Shown here piece after piece: positions 13,280 to 57,287 of a stretch of 64,000 nt of DNA (the first letter of the stretch is position 1; the number at the start of each line of letters is the position of its first letter). Both the position numbers and the translations under genes were made by a program. This DNA comes from an uncultured Bacillales bacterium (lineage in GTDB: Bacteria > Bacillota_I > Bacilli_A > RF39 > UBA660): NCBI GenBank assembly GCA_947089915.1, contig CAMUMB010000001.1, forward strand, positions 1,581 through 65,580, read 5' to 3'. Below the pieces are notes generated by a model. That model had not been told where the DNA came from and ran no database searches. It saw only the letters and a list, made by a program, of their open reading frames with translations.

Positions 13280-14596
13280 CTATGATACTGATTCATCTGA
13301 TATAGATAATTCTATATTCTTTTTCTTCTTTTCTTTTTTCTTTTTATGTCTCGCTTCTATTGCGGAATCTTTTCTCTTTCCCTTTCTACAGATTACGATA
13401 ATTAAAATGAGTAATAGGAAAAGACAAACACCACCTAAGCATAGACCAATCAATTGATATAAGTTTTTTTCTTCTTCCATCAATTTTATTTCTTCATCAT
13501 AATAAATCTGTAATGTATTTTCTTCACTATTATATAAATAAAGATTTGCCTTTCCTGTTTCAACATTCATTCCATAGATAAGGGCATAGTTGGAAGATTC
13601 CTTTAATTTGTAAGCCGTCACTTCTTTATCATTAATTACAACAATAGATGCATGATAGCGTGCAGGTATTTCCTTTAATTTCATTGGATATAATACGATT
13701 CTTTGAAATGAAAATTCTTGGTATTCCTTGTAACTATTTGCCTCACTATCATAGATATAATAACCAATTGTACCAGTTTTATCTTTAAGACCAACTAATG
13801 TATAATTGGTAATTTCACTATAGTAGGCAGGGACTTCTTCCTCACCTATCATGACAATTGTTTCTACATAATTAGAAGGTGTGATTAATTCTGTCCGTTT
13901 ACGAACTACACTATAAGAACTACCATTGACATTTGCTTCAATGGGATTATATTCTTTGACATTTACATTGAGTACATAAGTTCTAGAATTTCCATTTTGA
14001 GCAGTCACTCTAATTTCAAATCGATTCGCACCCTCAATAACTTCTTTTTCCCCTAGTCCTTCTACACCTGCTGTCCCATCTTCTAGTGAACCTACAATAT
14101 TAATTTTGGTTGTTCCTGGTTCCATTTCTACTGCATATTCTAATTGTTCTTTATTGAATTCAGGAGAAATTCCTACACCTTCAATTCCTAAAGAAGATAA
14201 ATAATTATTAGAAGATAATACCACTACTGGTCTGTTTTTGACAGTAACTGTTACTGACTTTGATGCTGTGTAAGCCGAATTGGTTGAATAATCAGCGACA
14301 TCTTTTGGTATGACAGTAATTGTAGCACTTCCTGCGGCATTTGACTTAAATTTATATGTCACAGTTGCATCATCTATAAAATCGGAAGCAACCCCTCCTG
14401 ATAAAACTGCGCCATTAGAAGATGTAATTGAGAAATTACCAGCTAATCCTGATGCTTTCACCGTAACAACTATATCAGTTCCTACATAAGGAGACGTATT
14501 GCTTACATATACTTCTAAAGAACCAGCATTTACACTTTCACTATATAGGAAAAAAGCACCTAAAATAATAAATATACTACTAATTATTTTTTTCAT
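13280..14596 (-). CDS. Type I membrane / cell-surface protein with Ig-like and cadherin-like beta-sandwich domains, C-terminal TM helix and poly-Lys cytoplasmic tail
   Basis: Signal peptide MKKIISSIFIILGAFFLYSESVNA. Cadherin-like motif LSSLGIEGVGISPEF...RFEIRVTAQNGNSRTYVLNVNV. TM LYQLIGLCLGGVCLFLLLILIIV followed by RKGKRKD..KKKKEKKKK. Confidence 0.65.
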   Translation of the reverse strand: MKKIISSIFIILGAFFLYSESVNAGSLEVYVSNTSPYVGTDIVVTVKASGLAGNFSITSSNGAVLSGGVASDFIDDATVTYKFKSNAAGSATITVIPKDVADYSTNSAYTASKSVTVTVKNRPVVVLSSNNYLSSLGIEGVGISPEFNKEQLEYAVEMEPGTTKINIVGSLEDGTAGVEGLGEKEVIEGANRFEIRVTAQNGNSRTYVLNVNVKEYNPIEANVNGSSYSVVRKRTELITPSNYVETIVMIGEEEVPAYYSEITNYTLVGLKDKTGTIGYYIYDSEANSYKEYQEFSFQRIVLYPMKLKEIPARYHASIVVINDKEVTAYKLKESSNYALIYGMNVETGKANLYLYNSEENTLQIYYDEEIKLMEEEKNLYQLIGLCLGGVCLFLLLILIIVICRKGKRKDSAIEARHKKKKEKKKKNIELSISDESVS

Positions 14597-16503
14597 TCAA
14601 TCACACTATTCCCATTCATAATATAATTTTTAATATTAACATAATCTACTGCTGAAATTGTTCCATCTTGATTTACATCAGCAGCTAATTTATATGCCCC
14701 TGTTAAAGTAGAAGAAGCCATAATACAATTTTTTACTTGTACATAATCTACGGCAGATACTTTTCCATCACCATTGACATCACCGTAAATAACAATACGG
14801 AATGCTTTACTTTCTTGTCCATTTGAAACGGTTACAACATCTCCAGTTCCAAGGGCAGTTCCGTCTTTCAATTCAATGGTTTGATTGTTTACACTCCTTG
14901 TAACTGTCACAGATATATCTTGATTATTTCCTTTGATATTGGCAATTAGGGCTTGGGCAGATGTTCCTAATTTAATTTTGGAAATATAATCATTATTATA
15001 ACTATATGGCGAAGACTCTATAATATTCGTAATAGAAGAAACACGATTTTCTTCCTCTTCTTTGGCTTCTTCATCAATCTTATCTTTTGTTTCTTCATCT
15101 TCTATTGCTGGTAATAAAGAAGGTGTGTCTGGCATATTTTGATATACTGGAATTAAAAATTCAATTGCACTATCTAAAAGTCCATCTATTTTTGAATATG
15201 CCTCATAAGTAGATTTACCTTCTGACATTGGGGCTTGAATATTTGTCATATATTGATGAGAATAATTACCAGCATAATTACTTGTAACATTCCATTTTTT
15301 AAAATATAATGTATTTTGCTTTTTATTAATATAGGATTCTGCGATATAAGAAGCTCCATTTTTTATAGATAATTCAATTGTGGTCCAAGGCCGATTAAAT
15401 GAGGTAGTTTCTGATTCTGTTGCAATATATCCAGAAGCAAAATTAATTGCACAGGCAACTGGGTTAGCACAACTAGAGTTTGCTCCTAAATTGTATACGT
15501 TATAATAAGCTACATCATTAATTTTATTTGTCCCATTGGCAGAACCACTCAATTTTCCATCTGATAAAACAACTTCTTGTTTTGAGCTTGCTGCCAAATG
15601 CACTGGATTAATACTATTGCCATTATAAGTTGCAGCTTCTATATAGGTTTCTGCATATGGATATAAATCGGTATTTTTTAGCACATTTTGCACTACTTCT
15701 AATGTTTGATAGTTACTATTGTAACTTAAATTTTCAAACATAAAGATTTCTTTTTCTGCTAGAAAATTTCTAGGATCTAAATAGTAAGCTACCGTTTGTG
15801 CATTGGCAGCATACCAATTATTGGGTTCTTTAACAATATATTTTTGATTGATAGGATCATAAGATCCTTCTTCTAATGAAATATACTTTGTACCCTTTTC
15901 TAAATCGGTTATCTGAATATAACTCATTCCAACAATACTTTCGTTTTGAACAGATTCGTTCCAATCTAGATTGGTTTGGAAGGCTGTAAAAATCCAATTA
16001 GGATGTGCATCCTTGAGTAATGTTAATCTTTCAAAGTAACTTTCAGGAAAGCCTGCCTTTGTAAATTCTTCGGCATACTTACTTGTATCAACATCCGTTT
16101 TAACAGCATCAGCACAAACATACCCAGTTACTGCCCCAGATTTTGTTGTAATAAAAGTGACTTCCAAAAAGTGACTTTTACAGCTATCAATTGTAGATTC
16201 AACAGGATTATTATAGTTTTTTATTTTTACTTCATCACCTAAATCTAAACAATGTAAAGCTCCTGGTGCTGCATAATTACTATCATATTTTCCATTAACT
16301 TGATATAAGCAACCTTTCCCAGTCATGTCTATATTAGGTTCCTTTGTAATAACTAAATTTCCTTGTGTAATATAAGCAGGAATATTGGTTTTTTCTTCTT
16401 CCACTTCACTTGCAAGTATACTACATGGAAGTAAAAGAAAAATGAAAGACAAAATTAAGATATAATTTTTATTATTTTTCATTTTATCCCTTCTTTCTGC
16501 CAT
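14593..16503 (-). CDS. Secreted protein with C-terminal type I dockerin domain (two Ca-binding repeats)
   Basis: Signal peptide. C-terminal GDVNGDGKVSAVDYVQVKNCIM ... ADVNQDGTISAVDYVNIKNYIM matches the dockerin DxNxDGxxxxxD duplicated repeat. ATGA overlap with downstream gene. Confidence 0.7.
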   Translation of the reverse strand: MAERRDKMKNNKNYILILSFIFLLLPCSILASEVEEEKTNIPAYITQGNLVITKEPNIDMTGKGCLYQVNGKYDSNYAAPGALHCLDLGDEVKIKNYNNPVESTIDSCKSHFLEVTFITTKSGAVTGYVCADAVKTDVDTSKYAEEFTKAGFPESYFERLTLLKDAHPNWIFTAFQTNLDWNESVQNESIVGMSYIQITDLEKGTKYISLEEGSYDPINQKYIVKEPNNWYAANAQTVAYYLDPRNFLAEKEIFMFENLSYNSNYQTLEVVQNVLKNTDLYPYAETYIEAATYNGNSINPVHLAASSKQEVVLSDGKLSGSANGTNKINDVAYYNVYNLGANSSCANPVACAINFASGYIATESETTSFNRPWTTIELSIKNGASYIAESYINKKQNTLYFKKWNVTSNYAGNYSHQYMTNIQAPMSEGKSTYEAYSKIDGLLDSAIEFLIPVYQNMPDTPSLLPAIEDEETKDKIDEEAKEEEENRVSSITNIIESSPYSYNNDYISKIKLGTSAQALIANIKGNNQDISVTVTRSVNNQTIELKDGTALGTGDVVTVSNGQESKAFRIVIYGDVNGDGKVSAVDYVQVKNCIMASSTLTGAYKLAADVNQDGTISAVDYVNIKNYIMNGNSVIE

Positions 16504-19735: not shown

Positions 19736-21670
19736 TTATTTGTTATTTATATAAATACATATCATCTGAGCAACCTGTTCATTTCCAATAGATGCATCTA
19801 TACACAAATCATAATTGTTTTTATCTCCCCATTTTTGGTTGGCAATTATACTATAATAATTGGATCTTGATTCATTAGAATCCATTATATGCTTCTTTGC
19901 ATCTTTCTCATTATCATTATAATTTTTCATCACATTTTTCACCTTATAATCCATAGGAGCATAAATAAATATTTTAATTAAACTTGGATTATTTCTTAAA
20001 ATATAGTCTGCAGATCTACCAACAATTACTGCACTACCCTGCTGTGCAATTGCTTCAATTACTTTTGCCTGATTTATAATGGCATCTTTATTGACATCCA
20101 AAGATAAATAGTTATCATATAATTCTTCTATATCATCTGTCCCATGTAACTGATTTCGAACGGCAAATTCCTTGATTTCCTCTTTATCATAAAATGGAAT
20201 ATTTAATTTTTTTGCTACTAATCTCGCAATCTCTTTTCCATTTGTTCCATGTTCCCTTGAAATAGAAATAATAAGATGATTGGATATTTTTGTATCACGA
20301 ATCGTCCCAATTTTAGCATGATAAGATTTTTTTAGAATCAATATGGAAATAAGTGCTGTTAAAATTTCTGAAATAGGGAATGTCCACCATACAATATTTA
20401 CAACTTCATCGGATAAAGTAAACAAATATGCTATTGGAAAAACAAACACCACTAATCTTAGGAAAGAAATCAAAAGAGGCCTTCCCGCATAATGAATGGA
20501 CTGTAATATTCCTTGAACAGCAATCGAAAAGCCCATAAATACAAATCCTAGGCTCGCAATTCTAAGAGCCTTCGTACAAACATGAATCATCTCTGCAGTA
20601 GTTCCTCCTGCAAGTCCAAAAAGTCCTGCAAGTGGATGTGCGAAAACTTCGAATAACACGGTTAAAAGAAAACTTACCATTGAAGTATCAATAATTCCAT
20701 ATTTGATACAATCATCAATTCTATTTTTATCTTTCATACCATAATTAAATGATAAGATTGATATGATTGTATTTGATAAGCCAAATGCTGAAAATAATGC
20801 GACTTGTTGGATTTTATAATAGATACCAAATGAGCCAATTAAGATCGTTTGATCTACTTCTGCAAGCCCTAAAATGGCGTTCATTCCTGCCATCATAACG
20901 GCAAGTAATCCCTGCATAATTGCCGCCGATATTCCAATGCTATAGATTCCCTTTATCAGTTTTCCATTCGGTTTTACATATTTTAAACTTCCATCAATTT
21001 CTTTGTTTTTTGTATAATGGAATAGCATAGCGATAAACAAGGAAACGAATTGCCCTATTATCGTAGCCCATGCAGCTCCAGCAACTCCCATATGAAGTGG
21101 ATAAATAAAGATATAATACAATATAATATTTACGCAGGCACCAGAAATTTGAGAAATAGTAGAAAGCATTGTTTTGCCTGTTGCTTATAGAAATCTCTCA
21201 TATACGGTATAACCGATAGATCCTAGTGATAGACAAGCACATATTTTTAAATAGGTTGTACCCATTTCAATAATTTCTTCCTTGTTTGTAAATAAAGAAA
21301 TAAACCATTCAGAACCAAACCAACCAAATAGTAAAAATACCAAGTAAATACAGATGCTTAAAAAAATCCCATTTCCAGCAACCCGATTCACCTTTTCTTG
21401 TTCTTTTTCTCCTAAACTTTTGGATAAGAGTGCATTTAACCCTACCCCAGTTCCAACTCCAATTGCAATAATCATAATTTGAATTGGAAATGAAAATGTT
21501 AATGCTTGATTGGCAATTGCTCCCTTAGTACCCATATTCGTAACAAAGATACTATCAATCACATTATATAATGCTTGTAATACCATAGAAACAATCATAG
21601 GTAGACCCATCTTCAAAAATAGTTTATTCATTGGAGCAACAGCCATCTTATTTTGCTTTTCTTCTTTCAT
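19736..21670 (-). pseudogene. MATE-family efflux transporter interrupted by one in-frame TAA (at 21185-21187) and fused at the C-terminus to a cytidylate-kinase-like (PF13189-type) domain
   Basis: ORFs 21185-21670 and 19736-21169 are in the same frame, separated only by TAA plus 5 codons (..YERFL*ATGKTMLS..). Together they make 12 TM helices. The C-terminal 180 aa (ISISREHGTNGKEIARLVAKKLNIPFYDKEEI...) resembles the cytidylate kinase-like family. Confidence 0.6.
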
Positions 21671-46021: not shown

Positions 46022-47760
46022 TTATCGCACTTTACACTTATATTTTGATTTATTTGGTATACTTTCCTTATCGATTGGTGAAATCGTATAATTATGCAAA
46101 AGTTCTACTATTTTTGTCATTTTATTTAAGGCAAGGTTATCATTTGTTGGACAATCTAATAATTCATTTAATCTGGTCCAAACAAATTGTGCATCTTCTT
46201 GTTTTTCTGAATCTAAGCTTTGCATTTGCTGCAATATATAAAATTGTATTTCAATTATTTCATATGGAAAGATATCTTTAATTAAGATTTTTTCTTTCCG
46301 ATTTTGATAAGCGGAAACTATTTCTAAATTTTGTTTTTCTAATTCTTGACTATATTCTGCATCTGCCTTTTTTGTAACTGGTTTTTGCACATCTATTGGA
46401 GTATCTTCTTTTGTTTGACAATTCAATTCGCTCTCTTTTTCTGTTCCATGTGAATTCGAATTATTTTTACCATTTTCTAAATTAAGATTAAGTTTAGTCT
46501 TCTGTACTTCTACCAATTTTTCAAAATCTTGAACAATAGACTTCCAAATACTCTGTTCTTCTTCAGTTAATAAAACTGTTTCATCTAATTTATCATAAGT
46601 AGGTCCATATAACTTAACGATTACATCATAGTATTTTTTAGTATGTTCATTCCACCACTCAATTTGGAGTATCGCATATTCTTTATCTTCTTCCTTGCAA
46701 TATTCAAACATACTTGTTTTTCTTTTTCGCCCAACTATTGTTTCATTCAAATTTTCTCTGTTTAAATCGCAAGAATTTGAATTTTCAGATTTTAGAGATT
46801 TTATACCTTCCTCTATTGTTTTGTAAACAAGAGAAAGATTACTATATACTGTTTTTTTTCACATTTTAAAATACCTGCAACTTGGTCTATAGAATATTTA
46901 GGACGATCAATTCCATTTATATATGTAAAAACAATTTTTAAATCTGTTGAAAAATCATCTAAAATTTCTTGTAACTGTTCTTCTGTCATGTTAAATTGAG
47001 ATAAAAATTCCTCTTTTCCACTATATATTTTGGGTATATCTGTTGAATTCAAATTATCTTTAGTATCTTTTAAAGTGGCAGAAACTGAATTGGCTTTTTT
47101 ATGATCTTCAGGAATAACCTTTTTTTGAATTGGTACAATCTCAGGATTCTTTTTTTCTGGAATAGGGATTGTTATATTTTCTATCATTGTAATATCTCGA
47201 TTTTCTAATAATTTCCCTGTTTGATATGCTTCTAATGCATGATTAACCGCATTTAAACATTTCACTACCTCATCATTACTACATCTTAACTTATCTGCAA
47301 TTTTATAAATATCTAATTTCTTCTTATAATACCCTATAAAACAAGATTTTTGAATTTTAGGTAAGGTATTCAAAATAGCATTGATTTCCGCTACTGTTAC
47401 TTCATAAGTTTGCAAGATATTGCTAATACTATGATAAGTTTTTACATTACTATTTTGATAATTGACTGGCAATTCAAATTTATGGATAAAATAGTTTTTA
47501 ATTTGATAGAAGGAACAACCTTTTTGTTTTAATATCTCTGCAATCAAAAGATAGTTTTCAAATTGAAGTGCACTTTTTTGAAACAATAATTCTTCTGATT
47601 CTGTAAGTACTGCCTTATTATTTTCCTTTAAATAGTTTCCCCACTTTTTTGAAAATATCTTACGAATCGTAAATGGAATAGCGCTATAGACACAATCAAT
47701 TAGATCTCCACTAAAATCTTTATAATATGTATAAATATTTTTTTCATCACGATAGTTCAT
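46022..47760 (-). pseudogene. Gene for a protein with sigma-70 region-4-like HTH, split in two ORFs (46813-47760 and 46022-46750) by a frameshift at an A8 homopolymer (T8 on plus strand, 46852-46859)
   Basis: An extra A in the run makes one continuous ORF of about 570 aa that reads directly into the downstream ORF. The downstream ORF has only a TTG start and no SD of its own. HTH LPKIQKSCFIGYYKKKLDIYKIADKLRCSNDEVVKCLNAVNHALE. Confidence 0.6.
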
Positions 47761-47803
47761 ACAAATCACTCCTTAGTTTTAAAGACAATAAAAAAGAGGG
47801 TGT

Positions 47804-47815
47804 CCCCCCCCCCCC
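47804..47815. repeat. C12 / G12 homopolymeric tract in the 5' leader of the sigma-like gene (G12 on the transcribed minus strand)
   Basis: Read directly. About 45 nt upstream of ATG 47760. Followed on the minus strand by ACA-CCCTC-TTTTTT. Confidence 0.9.
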
Positions 47816-47895
47816 GTTTACAAATAGCAAACCTTTATATTTTTATACTACGCAAACTATATTACAATTGAATTGTAACCCTTTTTATTGCTAAT

Positions 47896-51662: not shown

Positions 51663-53735
51663 CTAATTTCCGCCATTTTTCTTAATGACTTCTTCAGCAA
51701 TGTTTCTAGGTACTTCTTCATAATGATCGAATTCCATTGTATAATTCCCACGTCCTTGCGTGTTAGAACGTAAACTTGTTACATATCCAAACATTTCTGA
51801 AAGTGGTACCATCGCATCTATTTTTAAAGCATTTCCTCTCGATTCTTGTCCAAGTGGACGTCCTCTACGAGAAGTAATATCTCCCATTACATTTCCTAGA
51901 TATTCATCTGGTACAACAACTTGTACTTTCATGATTGGTTCTAGTAAAATTGGTTTACATTTGTTCTTTGCTTCTTTCAAAGCCATAGAAGCTGCAATTT
52001 TGTAAGCCATTTCAGATGAGTCGACATCATGGTATGATCCATCAAATAATGTTGCTTTTACGTCAACCATTGGGAATCCTGCAAGAACACCTGTTTTCAT
52101 TGCTTCTTGTAATCCCTTGTCAGTTACTGGTATGTATTCACGAGGAACGACACCACCAACAACAGCGTCAACGAATTCATAACCTTTATCTGGATTTGGT
52201 TCAAATTTGATCCATACGTGTCCATATTGTCCACGACCACCAGATTGTTTGATATATTTTCCTTCACATTCTGCCGTTTGTGTTAGGGTTTCACGATAGG
52301 ATACTTGTGGTTGACCTACGTTGGCTTCTACACCAAATTCTCTTTTCATACGGTCAACGATAATATCTAAGTGAAGTTCACCCATACCAGCAATGATGGT
52401 TTGACCTGTTTCATGGTTGGTACTTGCTCTAAATGTTGGATCTTCTTCGGCAAGTTTTTGTAATGCAATTCCCATTTTATCTTGATCTGCTTTTGATTTT
52501 GGTTCTACGGTTAATTCAATTACAGGTTCTGGGAATTCCATTGATTCTAGAATACATGGATGTTTTTCATCGCATAAAGTATCCCCAGTTGTTGTATTTT
52601 TGAATCCTACTGCTGCAGCAATATCTCCTGCAAATACTTCTGAAATTTCGGTACGATTATTGGCATGCATTAGTAAGATACGTCCTAGTCTTTCTTTTTC
52701 TCCTTTAGTTGCGTTTACTACATAAGAACCACCTGTGATGTGTCCTGAATAAACACGGAAGAATGTCAAACGTCCAACAAATGGGTCTGTCATAACCTTG
52801 AATGCCAATGCACTGAAAGGTTCAGAATCAGATGGATGTCTTTCAATTTCTTTTCCATCCATATCCACACCCTTAATCGATGGAATATCAGATGGAGCTG
52901 GTAAGTAATCTACAACCGCATCTAACAATAATTTAACACCTGTGTTACCTAAGGCAGTACCACACATTACTGGGAAGAATTCAACAGCAAGTGTTCCTTT
53001 ACGGATTGCACGCTTTAATAATTCTACTGGAATTTCCTCTCCTTCTAGGTATTTGTTCATTAATTCATCATCGAATTCCGCAACTGCCTCAATTAAAGCA
53101 CCACGTTTTTCTTCTACTAATGTTTTATATTCTTCTGGAATGTCGGATTCCGTTGCATTTTCTTCTTGGCCTCTATCATAGACATACATTTTTTGATTGA
53201 CTAAGTCTAGAATGGTTTTAAATTCATTTTCTGCACCAATTGGCCATTCGATTGGAGCAAAGTTTACCCCTAAACGATCTTTGATGGTTTTTAAACAGTA
53301 TTCAAAATCTGCACCCATCTTATCCATTTTGTTACAGAAAATCATACGTGGTACTCTGAATTCATCGGCTTGACGCCAAACAGTTTCGGTTTGTGGTTCA
53401 ACTCCAGCTTGTGTATCTAGTAAGGCTACTGCACCATCTAGTACACGAAGGGAACGAGATACTTCAACAGTAAAGTCTACGTGCCCTGGAGTATCGATAA
53501 TATTTAATCTATGACCTTTCCAGAAAGCAGTTGTAGCGGCTGAAGTGATTGTAATTCCACGTTCTTGTTCTTGTTCCATCCAGTCCATTTGAGAAGCACC
53601 ATCATGGGTTTCACCAATTTTATGGATTTTATGGGTATGGAATAGGATACGTTCGGTACAAGTTGTTTTTCCTGCATCGATATGTGCCATAATTCCAAAG
53701 TTACGTGTATTTTCTAAGCTATATTCACGAGCCAT
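51663..53735 (-). CDS. fusA: Elongation factor G
   Basis: [26 protein letters not shown] 53735 with AAGGAAACAAG RBS 19 nt after the rpsG stop. The ORF-track upstream extension overlaps rpsG. Confidence 0.95.
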
Positions 53736-53754
53736 ATTCTTGTTTCCTTTCTTA

Positions 53755-54222
53755 TTACCAACGGTAGTGAGCAAATGCTTTATTTGCTTCTGCCATTTTA
53801 TGTGTATCTTCACGTTTTTTTACAGCTGCACCAGTTCCTTCTGATGCATCAATAATCTCGTTTGCTAAGTTTTCAGCCATTGAATGACCTCCTCTTAAAC
53901 GAGAATAGTTTACTAACCAACGAAGGGCTAATGCTTGACTACGATCAGCTTTTACTTCAATTGGTACTTGATAGTTTGCTCCACCTACACGGCGTGATTT
54001 TACTTCAAGTGCTGGTTTGATGTTTTCCATGGCTTTTTCAAAAACTTCCATTGGGTCTTGTCCTGTTTTTTCTTTTACCATGTCAAATGCACCATATAGT
54101 ATTTTTTGAGCAGTTCCCTTTTTTCCATCATTCATGATTTGATTAATCAATTTAGTAACCAATTTAGAATTGTAGATTGGATCTGCTAAAACGTCTCTTT
54201 TGACTGCACGTCTTTTACGCAT
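53755..54222 (-). CDS. rpsG: 30S ribosomal protein S7
   Basis: 155 aa. [27 protein letters not shown].. Confidence 0.95.
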
Positions 54223-54253: not shown

Positions 54254-54673
54254 TTATTTACTAGCTTTTGGTTTCTTTGTTCCATATTTTGAACGTCCTT
54301 GACGTCTTTTATCGATTCCAGCAGTATCTAATGTACCACGTACAATATGATATCTAACACCGATTAAGTCCTTTACACGTCCTCCACGGATTAATACAAC
54401 GCTGTGCTCTTGTAAGTTATGTCCTTCTCCACCAATATAAGCAGTTACTTCATATCCATTGCTCAAACGAACACGGGCATATTTACGTAATGCTGAGTTT
54501 GGCTTCTTTGGGGTCATCGTTCCAACACGTGTACATACGCCACGTTTTTGTGGGGAATTTTGATCTGTGTTTTTCTTTGCACGACTGTTATATCCAATCC
54601 CAAGCACTGGTGATTTACTTTTTCTCGTTTTGTCAGTTCTACCTTTTCTTACTAATTGTTGTATTGTAGGCAT
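54254..54673 (-). CDS. rpsL: 30S ribosomal protein S12
   Basis: [12 protein letters not shown].. with [18 protein letters not shown] before ATG 54673. Confidence 0.95.
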
Positions 54674-54765
54674 ATAAACCCTCCTTTCATTACACACTTC
54701 CAGGTGTTTCATTTTTTAACTTAATGAAAGATTTACCGAAGTAAATCTTGATTAAATCCTTAAAT

Positions 54766-54794
54766 AATATACCACCTTATTGTATGCTTGTCAA
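54766..54794 (-). promoter_or_regulatory. Sigma-A-type promoter TTGACA-N17-TATATT (extended TG) for the rpsL-rpsG-fusA-tuf operon. Leader contains an 8-bp stem with UUCG tetraloop (54729-54748)
   Basis: tgtcaa 54789-54794, aatata 54766-54771. Hairpin AGATTTAC-ttcg-GTAAATCT read on the minus strand. Confidence 0.5.
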
Positions 54795-54809
54795 TTACTT
54801 TTTATGCAA

Positions 54810-55916
54810 CTATTCACTTAATTGTAGCCATACATTATAGATATTAGAAGTTATTTCAGTGTTACCGCTTTTATTTCTCCTTATTTCAAAATATCCAAGT
54901 CCGTCTATTGTTAATATGTTGGTAGACAATACCTTTCTATCAAGTACTTCTGTATACCCTCCAGAGGCACCGGTTTTAAACAAAACTGGCACCGCAAGTA
55001 TCTGCCGACTACTGTTATCTAGCAAATTTACCTCTTCATAAAAGAAATATTCAAAGGCTAGATTAACTATTGGTTGATCTTCTGGAACATGTGATGTTGC
55101 AGATACATCTACATAAATATATGCATAATCAGTCAAATTGATTGGATCTTTCGTATATATTCCCCGACGTTCTTCATTATCTCCTGTAATTTCTAAATAT
55201 AAATAATCTTCTTGTGCTGTCAGTTCTGCTTTATAAGTCTCAAACTCTGCTAGCATTTCCCCATCTAATATAAGATAGTCTGCTAGTTTCTTCGTATCAG
55301 AACATACTTCTGTTTTGCCATTCGTTGTACATACCTTTGCATATGCTGCTTCTGATGGATAAATACATGTATTATTTTCATTCATACCTAAAGCAGTAAT
55401 ATCATCTTCTGTTTTGCCGTAATAACATTTCGTTTCTTTTACAAATGTATTCATTTGTGATTCATAATTTAATATCACTTGAGTATCTGTAAAATTTTTG
55501 CTACTCCAATTTGGTTTGGGCAAATATACGCTAGTATCTCCCACACAATCCTCTCTATCTATTATCTTAGGACTTTCATCATAACCTTTTTCAACACAGT
55601 ACTTTCCTATTTTAGCAATTATACTCATTTGATTGTTTTCTCCTATTACGAGTATTCCACTTTCTGGTTTAGATCCTTTATAAGTTAAGATATCACCTGT
55701 TAAATCAATTGTTTGTTGATATTCTTCTCCTTCTAACATCGATTCCAATTGATAGTTCTCTGCTGCTTCTAAGATCCCATTTACCGATTCTATTGCTGCT
55801 CCTCTTCTTGACTTTTCAATCACATCCATTATCATTGGCGTTGCGATTAGTGCGATTACTGCTAGTATTACGATAACTGCTAATAATTCTACTAATGTAA
55901 ATCCTTTTTTCTTCAT
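54810..55916 (-). CDS. Type IV pilin-like protein (prepilin-type N-terminal cleavage/methylation domain, 368 aa)
   Basis: MKKKG-FTLVELLAVIVILAVIALIATP: class III signal peptide with G(-1), F(+1), E(+5), followed by a large secreted domain. GAGAGGAAGG RBS. Confidence 0.75.
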   Translation of the reverse strand: MKKKGFTLVELLAVIVILAVIALIATPMIMDVIEKSRRGAAIESVNGILEAAENYQLESMLEGEEYQQTIDLTGDILTYKGSKPESGILVIGENNQMSIIAKIGKYCVEKGYDESPKIIDREDCVGDTSVYLPKPNWSSKNFTDTQVILNYESQMNTFVKETKCYYGKTEDDITALGMNENNTCIYPSEAAYAKVCTTNGKTEVCSDTKKLADYLILDGEMLAEFETYKAELTAQEDYLYLEITGDNEERRGIYTKDPINLTDYAYIYVDVSATSHVPEDQPIVNLAFEYFFYEEVNLLDNSSRQILAVPVLFKTGASGGYTEVLDRKVLSTNILTIDGLGYFEIRRNKSGNTEITSNIYNVWLQLSE

Positions 55917-55962
55917 TCAAATCTTCCTTCCTCTCATAATAAACCATAAAAAAAGGGGTATA

Positions 55963-55973
55963 CCCCCCCCCGT
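55963..55973. repeat. C11 / G11 homopolymeric tract in the 5' leader of the pilin-like gene, within palindrome GGGGTATACCCC...
   Basis: Read directly. On the minus strand: G11-TATA-CCCC-TTTTTTT, about 45 nt upstream of ATG 55916. Homologous context to 47804-47815. Confidence 0.9.
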
Positions 55974-56041
55974 TCACAAATAGCTAACTTGTGTATCTAT
56001 GCTATATGCAAACTATTTTATGATTTATTTTTGATAATTTC

Positions 56042-56070
56042 ATTATAAAGCAATCATATCATTTTGACAA
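56042..56070 (-). promoter_or_regulatory. Sigma-A-type promoter TTGTCA-N17-TATAAT for the pilin-like gene. Start of a roughly 120-nt leader containing the G11 tract
   Basis: tgacaa 56065-56070, attata 56042-56047 on plus strand. Confidence 0.5.
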
Positions 56071-56093
56071 GCTATAATTTGCCTTTTTACATT

Positions 56094-57287
56094 CTAATTT
56101 ACATTATAATATTCTTTCTTCTTTTGTTTTTCTTGTTCTAGAAATTGTTTTGCTTGTTCATATTCGTAGTCATATTTATATGGAATTGCCATTTTCAATC
56201 GAAACACTACATCATAAATTGCTTGATACCAGAAATCACATTCATCTTTCTTGCAGCGAAATGTCTCGTATACATAATCAATTCCTTCTTCTAGTAATTC
56301 ATCTAATAAAATTGGATTATGTTTTCTATAAAATTCTATTTTTGGATATAATTTCAAAAATTCTGTTACACTATCCATCTTTATATTTCCTTTACTTCTA
56401 ATTACAGCCATGTAAAATTGATTGATTTTTTCTCTATCGTAGCCAAGTTGAATCATTAAACTAGATATTTGTATCATTTCCTCATCGGTAATTGGTTTTA
56501 AAACTTCCCCTGTATATTCATTATAATATCCTGCAATTTGATTCCTTATTTCTTTATATTCCTTATCTGTTATTATATTCGTATTAGCAGACTTTACTTC
56601 ATATACAACAGATTTGGTTGAATGTTCTTTTTGAGCATTTGATTCCTTTTCTCCTTTTTTCACCTCTTTTTTTAGTGAGGTTTCAATATTAGAACATAAA
56701 CAAGAATCGATACCTAACTTATAAAGTATCTCTATAATTTTTTGAATATCCGATTCTGTATAAGAATGCTTTTTATCAAAATAACATTCCTGCAATTGTT
56801 TGTGTGTGTAAATTAAGGTATTCATTTCTAATGGAACAGGACCTGATTTTAATTTTTTTCTGGCATTTGCTTCATCACGAATTGTATAAATCCCATAATA
56901 TTCACCAAGCATTATTTGATCTACCATATTGTTTGTAATATCCAACATTTTGTAACACTTCTTTGACTCTATATCTTTTTCTTCTAAGATTCCATTTTCA
57001 ATATTGCGTTCTATCAAATATACTATTACTTGGAAACAATCCACTCCTCTTAAGCCACTATCTTGAAGCATAAGCGAAATAACATAAAAATTACCAAATA
57101 AATTTGAACGTTTATTTTTTAGAAACATTAATATATCCCTGTAACCTAAATATTGTATTGAGCTAAATGTCATATCTTTCATATTCCAATTTTCCCTGTT
57201 TGTTTTTTTTCTGTAATTGTACAACTTTTCTTTTATATTAATCATTTCTGTTTCTAAATAATTCTTAAATTTTTCAATTGCGTCCAT
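56094..57287 (-). CDS. Hypothetical cytoplasmic protein (397 aa)
   Basis: Complete ORF with GAGGAAA RBS and TTGACA-N16-TATACT promoter upstream. No family recognised. Confidence 0.45.
   Translation of the reverse strand: MDAIEKFKNYLETEMINIKEKLYNYRKKTNRENWNMKDMTFSSIQYLGYRDILMFLKNKRSNLFGNFYVISLMLQDSGLRGVDCFQVIVYLIERNIENGILEEKDIESKKCYKMLDITNNMVDQIMLGEYYGIYTIRDEANARKKLKSGPVPLEMNTLIYTHKQLQECYFDKKHSYTESDIQKIIEILYKLGIDSCLCSNIETSLKKEVKKGEKESNAQKEHSTKSVVYEVKSANTNIITDKEYKEIRNQIAGYYNEYTGEVLKPITDEEMIQISSLMIQLGYDREKINQFYMAVIRSKGNIKMDSVTEFLKLYPKIEFYRKHNPILLDELLEEGIDYVYETFRCKKDECDFWYQAIYDVVFRLKMAIPYKYDYEYEQAKQFLEQEKQKKKEYYNVN

Follow-up and report, generated by a model that had tools for sequence, protein, structure and literature searches.

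Locus organization and the encoded protein

We analyzed a 64,000-nucleotide stretch of contig CAMUMB010000001.1 (assembly GCA_947089915.1, from an uncultured Bacillales bacterium), hereafter called the window, and in particular a gene for a pilin-like protein of 368 residues that lies directly upstream of the rpsL operon and is itself preceded by a promoter and a 5' leader containing a run of nine G residues. All of these elements are on the minus strand, and their positions are collected in Table 1. An earlier description made from the letters of this DNA (the sequence-only reading) had let the region of the pilin gene begin at 54674, which takes in the intergenic region; the gene proper begins at 54810. 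The distance between its stop codon and the ATG of rpsL (54673–54671) is 136 nt.

Table 1. Positions, in window coordinates, of the features discussed in the text
Feature	Positions	Strand	Basis or remark
Pilin-like coding sequence (modular type IV pilin-like protein, 368 residues; predicted)	54810–55916	-	Open reading frame list, Pfam/TIGR matches, AlphaFold2
Pilin module, residues 1–124: class III signal peptide, alpha-1 helix (8–62), small beta-sheet, conserved C107 and C124	55545–55916	-	
C-terminal modules, residues 125–368: cysteine-rich beta domain (136–205) and CBM-like jelly roll (212–366)	54813–55544	-	
Cassette promoter, sigma-70-like, TTGTCA-N17-TATAAT	56042–56070	-	11 of 12 consensus positions
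Leader copy 1 (match to covariance model R1)	55922–56049	-	96.3 bits, E 9e-14, filters off
P1 hairpin (GUUUGC...GUGAAC), with the invariant box AAUCAUAAAAUAG directly before it	55972–56013	-	Covariation
G9 homopolymer, 5' arm of hairpin 2	55963–55971	-	
Terminator-like hairpin 2, G9-UAUA-CCCC-U7	55944–55971	-	Scan span 55971–55950; U-run to 55944
Presence/absence unit of 1.28 kb (promoter, leader, gene)	54810–56093	-	Absent from related contig L140, aligned on both sides
Leader copy 2, with G12 at 47815–47804	47767–47892	-	R1, 81.5 bits
Non-pilin gene downstream of leader copy 2, 315 residues, MNYRDEKNIY...	46813–47760	-	
rpsL (S12, 139 residues), followed by rpsG, fusA and tuf	54254–54673	-	
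rpsL operon promoter, TTGACA-N17-TATATT with upstream TG	54766–54794	-	Promoter scan; conserved in related contigs L140 and L146
UUCG-capped 9-bp hairpin in the rpsL 5' leader, AAGAUUUAC-UUCG-GUAAAUCUU	54728–54749	-	Sequence and fold

The translation of the open reading frame (ORF) opens with MKKKGFTLVELLAVIVILAVIALIATP. Its N-terminus, MKKKG/FTLVELLAVIVILAVIALIATP (the slash marks the prepilin peptidase site), carries the canonical prepilin signal MKKKG/FTLVE, whose peptidase site (G/FTLVE) the sequence-only reading had recognized, and with it a class III signal peptide; the protein moreover matches both Pfam N_methyl (1.4e-7) and TIGR02532 (9.6e-8) past their cut-offs. A six-frame regular-expression scan of the 64 kb finds the prepilin motif once, in this very ORF. 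About 57 N-terminal residues resemble GspG and ComGC, pilins of the PDB align with residues 2–98, and residues G5, F6, T7, L8, E10 and C124 are invariant across 49 homologues. In the AlphaFold2 model, whose predicted local distance difference test score (pLDDT) averages 90.4, a 55-residue helix at residues 8–62 is followed by a small sheet (strands within residues 69–119), both with pLDDT of 81–92, so that the long alpha-1 helix and the beta-sheet head of the pilin fold are present in the model. Two further beta domains, both confidently modelled, follow: the one at 136–205 contains four invariant cysteines, and the one at 212–366 is a beta sandwich resembling a carbohydrate-binding module (CBM).

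This succession of a pilin module and a separately folding module, apparent from the model and from the independent recombination of the modules described below, is that of a modular pilin, and the product is predicted to be a modular type IV pilin-like surface protein. Since a pilin head is combined with a cysteine-rich beta domain and a CBM-like jelly roll, the protein is probably a glycan-binding adhesin; both the binding of glycans and the incorporation into a filament are properties that we infer. An exact look-up of the 368-residue sequence returned no recorded entry, and a cluster look-up returned no names for four of its homologues.

A dispersed family of cassettes

A homologue search with the protein gave 3193 matches. 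Full-length relatives number nine, with 38–99% identity; in many more homologues the similarity, of up to 87% identity, is limited to about the first 125 residues, and the C-termini of 215–615 residues that follow are unrelated; some of these C-termini contain LRR_5 (leucine-rich repeat) domains. The reverse combination is found as well, homologues P0003 and P0007 having the C-terminal part of the window protein joined to a different pilin head. Proteins with the C-terminal 244 residues are few (14 cluster representatives among 1.84 billion), and a scan of species-representative genomes located this module in three metagenome-assembled genomes labelled uncultured Bacilli or Bacillales, one of which holds two copies and another four. 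Homologous genes invariably stand singly amid housekeeping genes, at sites as diverse as those after rpmF, before ppdK, before rpsB-tsf, between pcrA and ligA, and near typA. The sequence-only reading had called the window gene solitary, which is correct for its immediate surroundings and misleading as regards the family.

The extent of the conserved block is defined by two paralogous loci of a single assembly, L010 and L009. They are homologous over a block that starts at the -10 box, takes in the leader and reaches about codon 125, past which the sequences are unrelated; identity in this block is 87% overall and about 97% between the G-run and codon 60. What evolves as a unit is therefore the 5' block of promoter, leader and pilin module, to which interchangeable 3' modules are joined. 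By these sequence relationships, the window gene is one copy of a large multi-copy cassette family dispersed in uncultured gut Bacilli. Each cassette brings together a promoter of sigma-70 type, a leader that is conserved over about 100 nt, a pilin module that is conserved as well and a C-terminal module that can be exchanged. Orphan pilin genes alone are unremarkable. What sets this family apart is a design combining a portable 5' block, exchangeable binding modules (CBM-like or phage-tail-related) and a mutable G-run in each leader.

A conserved structured leader

A comparison of the sequences that precede homologous genes at unrelated loci shows the whole leader to be conserved. Its elements are, in order, the -10 box, about 15 nt, the box AAUNRUAAWAUAGUUUG, a hairpin with a variable loop, GYAAAC, a run of 9–12 G, a loop, a C/U tract, a U-run and the ribosome-binding site. 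The box is conserved in sequence, and not just in structure, in all leader classes. A pattern scan of metagenome contigs gave 118 stretches matching the leader, and a covariance model, R1, was built from 52 leader copies, in the alignment of which a -10-like box is found at constant distance from the leader. With filters off, R1 detects exactly two copies in the window; 79 copies were detected among the collected related loci, and no match was obtained among unrelated pattern matches or viral contigs. A phage origin of the leader was considered and rejected, as IMG/VR held no true matches and contained generic pilin helices only.

The RNA of copy 1 folds with -31.5 kcal/mol (z -4.1) into a three-way junction. 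As RNAalifold, run on the MAFFT alignment, recovered only the base of hairpin P1 and three pairs of the terminator-like hairpin 2, the structure was specified by hand and then tested. In the MAFFT alignment, 85.8% of the cells of P1 can pair, as compared with 35–46% when the partners are slid, and six pairs show compensatory changes, with a score that was reached by none of 500 shuffles; in the model-fitted alignment the values are 90.5% and 49–56%, respectively. A long-range helix, P0, was rejected as a general feature of the leader. It closes the three-way junction with -12 to -14 kcal/mol in the subclass of the window, to which it is confined; cognate duplexes have a mean of -5.6 kcal/mol vs. 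-4.7 kcal/mol for non-cognate ones, and the cognate partner has a mean rank of 24th of 61, in a comparison part of which cut the 3' segment of class-B copies wrongly.

The nature of the non-Watson-Crick cells of P1 bears on the level at which the 5' block acts. It could be imagined that the block, including the G-run, works at the DNA level by offering homology to recombination or by initiating it, with C-terminal modules being exchanged or 5' ends homogenized as a result, in loose analogy to the G4 element found upstream of pilE in Neisseria. This would account for the sharply bounded block of about 97% identity between G-run and codon 60 in the paralogues and for the occurrence of one C-terminal module behind two different pilin heads. 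Yet G-U cells in P1 number 153 and A-C cells 17, an excess that fits a sense-strand RNA better than a DNA palindrome (base composition contributes to it), and neither a recombinase gene nor repeats are found at the cassette. To our knowledge, moreover, a single run of 9–12 G cannot form an intramolecular quadruplex. We consider such a DNA-level role very improbable.

No credible match to the leader was found in Rfam 15, whether with the window at gathering score, with the region of copy 1 at E<=5 or with ten other leader loci at E<=1, and no description of it was found in the literature. Judging from its conservation in sequence and pairing, the leader appears to be a conserved, uncatalogued structured RNA motif.

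Downstream of every complete leader copy there is an ORF in the same orientation. The genes concerned are mostly of prepilin type; the others comprise a class of small membrane-anchored proteins, one protein with a phage-tail match and a few cytoplasmic proteins of unknown function. The membrane-anchored proteins (loci L085, L089, L053, L130 and L042) have 220–270 residues, read MKKIILGIIIG...QNKTVNNALDELY and give weak matches to tail-fibre PHROGs. The phage-tail match concerns a 419-residue protein (L014, 2920–4301) with a pilin-like KGFA N-terminus, which matches the tail family phrog_5302 at 3e-53.

The second leader copy of the window also precedes a non-pilin gene. A promoter-like site (47924–47896) and a terminator-like hairpin (47815–47790) were located there by the scans. 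The orthologue of the downstream gene at L010 (18158–20671), a relative with 93% identity, is a single ORF of 837 residues with four repeats of about 85 residues (SMFEYCEKEDKEYAILQIEWW...) and a weak match to sigma-70 region 4. In the window (46022–47760, minus strand) the same gene is split into ORFs of 315 and 242 residues and contains a single repeat; by sequence, this split could reflect a frameshift or a pseudogene, together with variation in repeat number.

The G-run and the terminator-like hairpin

A terminator scan of the region gave seven terminator-like sites, compared with 1.0 expected. Both leader copies of the window have the layout of an intrinsic terminator, that is to say, a hairpin and a U-run between promoter and start codon, and this layout is conserved in the aligned copies; in the model-fitted alignment, 99.5% of the cells of hairpin 2 are G-C or G-U. 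Its 5' arm is the G-run, which is pure G in every copy and 9–12 nt long. Runs of at least seven G occur twice in the window, both times inside a leader copy, and by our own estimate about 0.006 runs of at least nine G would be expected by chance in 64 kb, counting both strands at 30.6% GC.

The length of the G-run differs between closely related sequences. The window and L007, of the same lineage, differ by 13 substitutions in 7652 bp, and the sole indel is G10 in L007 vs. G9 in the window; L010 has G10 at this locus as well. Further differences are G11 in L005 vs. G9 in L013 and, at the orthologous second copy, G12 in the window vs. GGGAGGGGGG in L010. Among five clusters of near-identical leaders, G length varies in three and the adjacent T-run in none. 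Moreover, about ten contigs (L020, L031, L033, L039, L093, L094, L103, L128, L006 and L065) end at the G-run or a few bases from it, which points either to a population heterogeneous in G length or to a failure of sequencing at the tract. A tract long enough to slip (about eight residues or more) in a regulatory position, polymorphic in length among near-identical sequences (in a small sample), is what is found at contingency loci.

We lean towards the view that the window gene belongs to a self-contained adhesin cassette whose expression is gated by a poly-G attenuator and whose product depends on machinery encoded elsewhere, and give it a slightly better than even chance. The G-run would pair with the C/U tract ahead of the U-run and so form the terminator-like hairpin just before the ribosome-binding site. 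Most transcripts would stop at this hairpin, expression would depend on read-through, and the unstable G-run would tune each copy individually and heritably. More tentatively, and with the balance of probability against it, the leader may constitute an undescribed type of cis-regulatory element in which a hypermutable run of 9–12 G acts as the sliding 5' arm of a terminator beside a conserved box and hairpin, and which forms a contingency regulon tuning dozens of dispersed genes for modular pilins, adhesins and phage-tail-like surface proteins. If the leader works as proposed, abundant uncultured gut bacteria would have in it a new means, acting at the level of RNA, of varying their adhesins in phase or rheostat fashion, and the catalogues would gain a new structured RNA motif.

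Several points weigh against the attenuator cassette. Termination and read-through are deduced from the sequence. Hairpin 2 cannot covary, because its 5' arm is always G and its 3' arm always C or U, and the differences in G length come from few comparisons in which homopolymer errors of sequencing or assembly are possible. Every G that is added lets one more U of the tail pair and raises the predicted stability of hairpin 2 by about 0.5 kcal/mol, which suggests a graded effect rather than an on/off switch. No conserved alternative pairing that could act as an antiterminator was found among the leader copies. The long leaders of class B (L022, L041, L043, L059 and L069) carry about 70 nt of additional sequence after the G-run hairpin, and this segment holds a second promoter-like sequence, TTTACA-N17-TAAACT, before the pilin gene, which would bypass the attenuator.

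Finally, no pilus machinery is found in the window, nor does a Walker A motif of PilB type (GPTGSGKS/T) occur in 1.1 Mb of related loci. When all ORFs with 110 residues or more in the 64 kb were scanned against Pfam, T2SSE, T2SSF, Peptidase_A24 and secretin gave no match, in agreement with the sequence-only reading, which had noted the lack of an assembly ATPase, platform and prepilin peptidase; no assembly ATPase or platform gene lies within 10 kb of six homologues either. The machinery is presumably encoded outside the window, and prepilin peptidase and assembly genes located elsewhere in the genome would process and assemble the cassette proteins. The question raised is which machinery assembles so many scattered pilin-like proteins.

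Alternative roles of the leader

Leader-dependent antitermination is typical of operons for surface structures; in the ops/RfaH, LoaP and UpxY systems, the genes for surface structures are separated from their promoter by a conserved leader element and a terminator. The invariant box and P1 are candidate control sites in the leader, and they could be recognized by a dedicated regulator, for example a specialised NusG paralogue like RfaH, LoaP or UpxY or an RNA-binding antiterminator, that lets RNA polymerase pass hairpin 2 and co-regulates the cassettes as a regulon. The G-run would then simply be part of the terminator stem and its changes in length incidental. This main rival explanation, which does not exclude a poly-G attenuator, is unlikely in our estimate. 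The conservation of the box as sequence in all classes argues for it, as do the lack of an alternative pairing able to act factor-free and the presence of the leader before non-pilin genes, which suggests a regulon. However, no NusG-like or other candidate regulator gene is found in the window, and antitermination leaves unexplained why the 5' arm is pure G in every copy and why G length is a hot spot of indels. Moreover, in contrast to ops/RfaH, LoaP and UpxY, the leader of the window has no identified cognate factor or conserved alternative pairing, and its invariant G homopolymer has no counterpart in these systems.

Promoter, leader and terminator could also make up a small RNA gene in its own right, about 95 nt long, that is present in many copies beside surface-protein genes and acts in trans, for example through its C/U tract or its G-run. 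The unit has its own promoter and a terminator-like end, the second promoter-like site of the long class-B copies indicates that the downstream gene may be transcribed separately, and there is a parallel in RepG of Helicobacter, whose C/U-rich loop pairs with a variable G-repeat (PMC8295292). In the majority of copies, both of those in the window among them, however, the G-run and the start codon are only 28–52 nt apart, with no second promoter in between. The orientation is always that of the downstream gene, and the C/U tract and the G-run can pair in cis in nearly all cells of the alignment, as given above. We attach little probability to this role, which, like the one at the DNA level, is less likely than factor-dependent antitermination.

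The site upstream of rpsL

For the comparison of gene order, contigs encoding an S12 protein identical to that of the window were used as relatives. One of these, L140, has 94% DNA identity to the window around rpsL, 82% in the deacetylase gene and 69% in a gene of unknown function. In L140, the stop codon of this last gene, which codes for 417 residues, is followed after 30 nt by the rpsL promoter, and the sequence corresponding to 54810 to about 56093 of the window is missing; the cassette is therefore a lineage-specific gain or loss. The counterpart in the window of the gene of unknown function, located between the deacetylase gene and the cassette (56094–57287, minus strand), codes for a 397-residue protein without match in Pfam, NCBIfam or PHROG; that of L140 lies at 1620–2873 and has about 69% nucleotide identity.

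A pilin gene upstream of rpsL is present in at least three sublineages, represented by the window and L007 (99.8% nucleotide identity), L135 and L010 (93.5%), and the P0002 lineage (L146 and L144), whose pilin is only 79% identical to that of the window. Because the three sublineages keep the gene, the gain or loss is not very recent. Terminal inverted or direct repeats flanking the 1.28-kb unit were not found, and the unit, which holds one gene, contains no transposase or integrase and does not qualify as a mobile element. Insertion by a transposon was accordingly rejected, repeats and transposase both being absent at the unit. The two junctions are AT-rich and resemble the empty site of L140 weakly. 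An alternative 5' half of the pilin gene, seemingly offered by L137 (1–183) and L139 (1–183), was likewise rejected, both being assembly chimeras in which a fragment of a P-type ATPase (VVMITGDN) is fused in frame to the pilin gene at a shared word coding for ITGDNEE.

Between the pilin stop codon and rpsL, the sequence-only reading had described a promoter of the rpsL operon, a UUCG-capped hairpin and a spacing of about 135 nt without a terminator, and all of this is borne out by the promoter scan, by folding and by a terminator scan that gave no terminator-like site in the interval. The rpsL 5' leader (54674–54765, minus strand) folds with a z of -3.7; its UUCG hairpin is conserved in the relatives, with one change from A-U to G-U in L140, and the leader does not match the ribosomal-protein leaders of Rfam.

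From this arrangement the sequence-only reading had suggested a recent insertion and raised the possibility of read-through; carried through, this gives a model in which a solitary pilin gene was inserted recently, its promoter is set by the length of the poly-G tract and read-through into the rpsL operon has functional consequences. In its favour, the unit is missing in a relative, no terminator precedes rpsL and G length is indeed polymorphic. Yet the G-run does not lie between the promoter hexamers but some 65 nt downstream of the -10 box, inside a hairpin of the transcribed leader, and the idea of a poly-G-regulated promoter is not supported. The accessory character of the unit is upheld by its absence from L140, whereas its recency is overstated, given that the arrangement is shared by sublineages with pilins only 79% identical. 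The gene is also one of many paralogues. Read-through into rpsL is physically possible for want of a terminator, but is unlikely to be of importance, given that rpsL has its own near-consensus promoter and that the pilin-less L140 likewise has no terminator before rpsL, the missing terminator therefore not being peculiar to the pilin gene. As a whole, this model is quite improbable. The position upstream of rpsL is best read as an acquisition specific to the lineage, or else as a loss from the relative, with no functional link to the ribosomal operon.

Relation to known systems

The vlp and vsp genes of Mycoplasma, with poly-A in the promoter, and the tpr genes of Treponema pallidum, with poly-G near the promoter (PMC7864442), form phase-variable multigene families of surface proteins. 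Like the present family, both are multi-copy and have a conserved block of promoter and signal peptide, a variable C-terminus and a mutable homopolymer upstream of each copy. In both of these families the tract is in or at the promoter, whereas that of the window is transcribed and forms one arm of a hairpin in the leader; the export signal also differs, being of prepilin type in the window family and of lipoprotein or outer-membrane type in vlp/vsp and tpr.

As to the protein, PilB and PilC of Streptococcus sanguinis (PMC8179133, PMC9934059) likewise join a class III signal peptide and a pilin module to a grafted functional module, which is of lectin type in PilC as compared with the CBM-like jelly roll of the window protein. 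The S. sanguinis genes, however, belong to the pil operon beside the machinery, whereas the genes of the window family are dispersed singly, with many paralogues, each with promoter and leader.

With regard to the leader, there is a likeness to the 5' leader of tlpB in Helicobacter pylori, the target of the small RNA RepG: its G tract, which varies in length, pairs with a C/U-rich segment of RNA, and a surface-related gene is controlled in a graded manner according to tract length (PMC8295292). In the window leader, by contrast, the C/U partner is in cis, a few nucleotides downstream, the pairing yields a terminator-like hairpin, dozens of loci are concerned and the regulation is a prediction.

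Other features of the window

Apart from the cassette, the Pfam scans of the window revealed housekeeping genes and unknowns only, and several ORFs matched no family. The genes that could be named are those for an acyl-CoA synthetase and a hybrid kinase, ftsZ/A/Q, murB/G/E, recD2, a miaB-like gene, rsmE, miaA, queA, ruvAB, fmt, priA, eno, femAB, clpC and the gene for the polysaccharide deacetylase. A 636-residue protein (14593–16503, minus strand) has a C-terminal type I dockerin domain (1.8e-17), which hints at cohesin-dockerin surface complexes in this organism; the adjoining gene (13280–14596, minus strand) codes for a 438-residue protein with a weak cadherin-like match. At 19736–21670 (minus strand), a MatE transporter extends over two ORFs of 161 and 477 residues, the second of which includes a cytidylate-kinase-like domain, and this may be due to a frameshift or to an unusual fusion. 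Lastly, the fusA ORF as called (51663–53813, minus strand; 716 residues with a GTG start) overlaps rpsG; as the product in relatives is called as 690 residues, the true start is probably an internal ATG near 53735.

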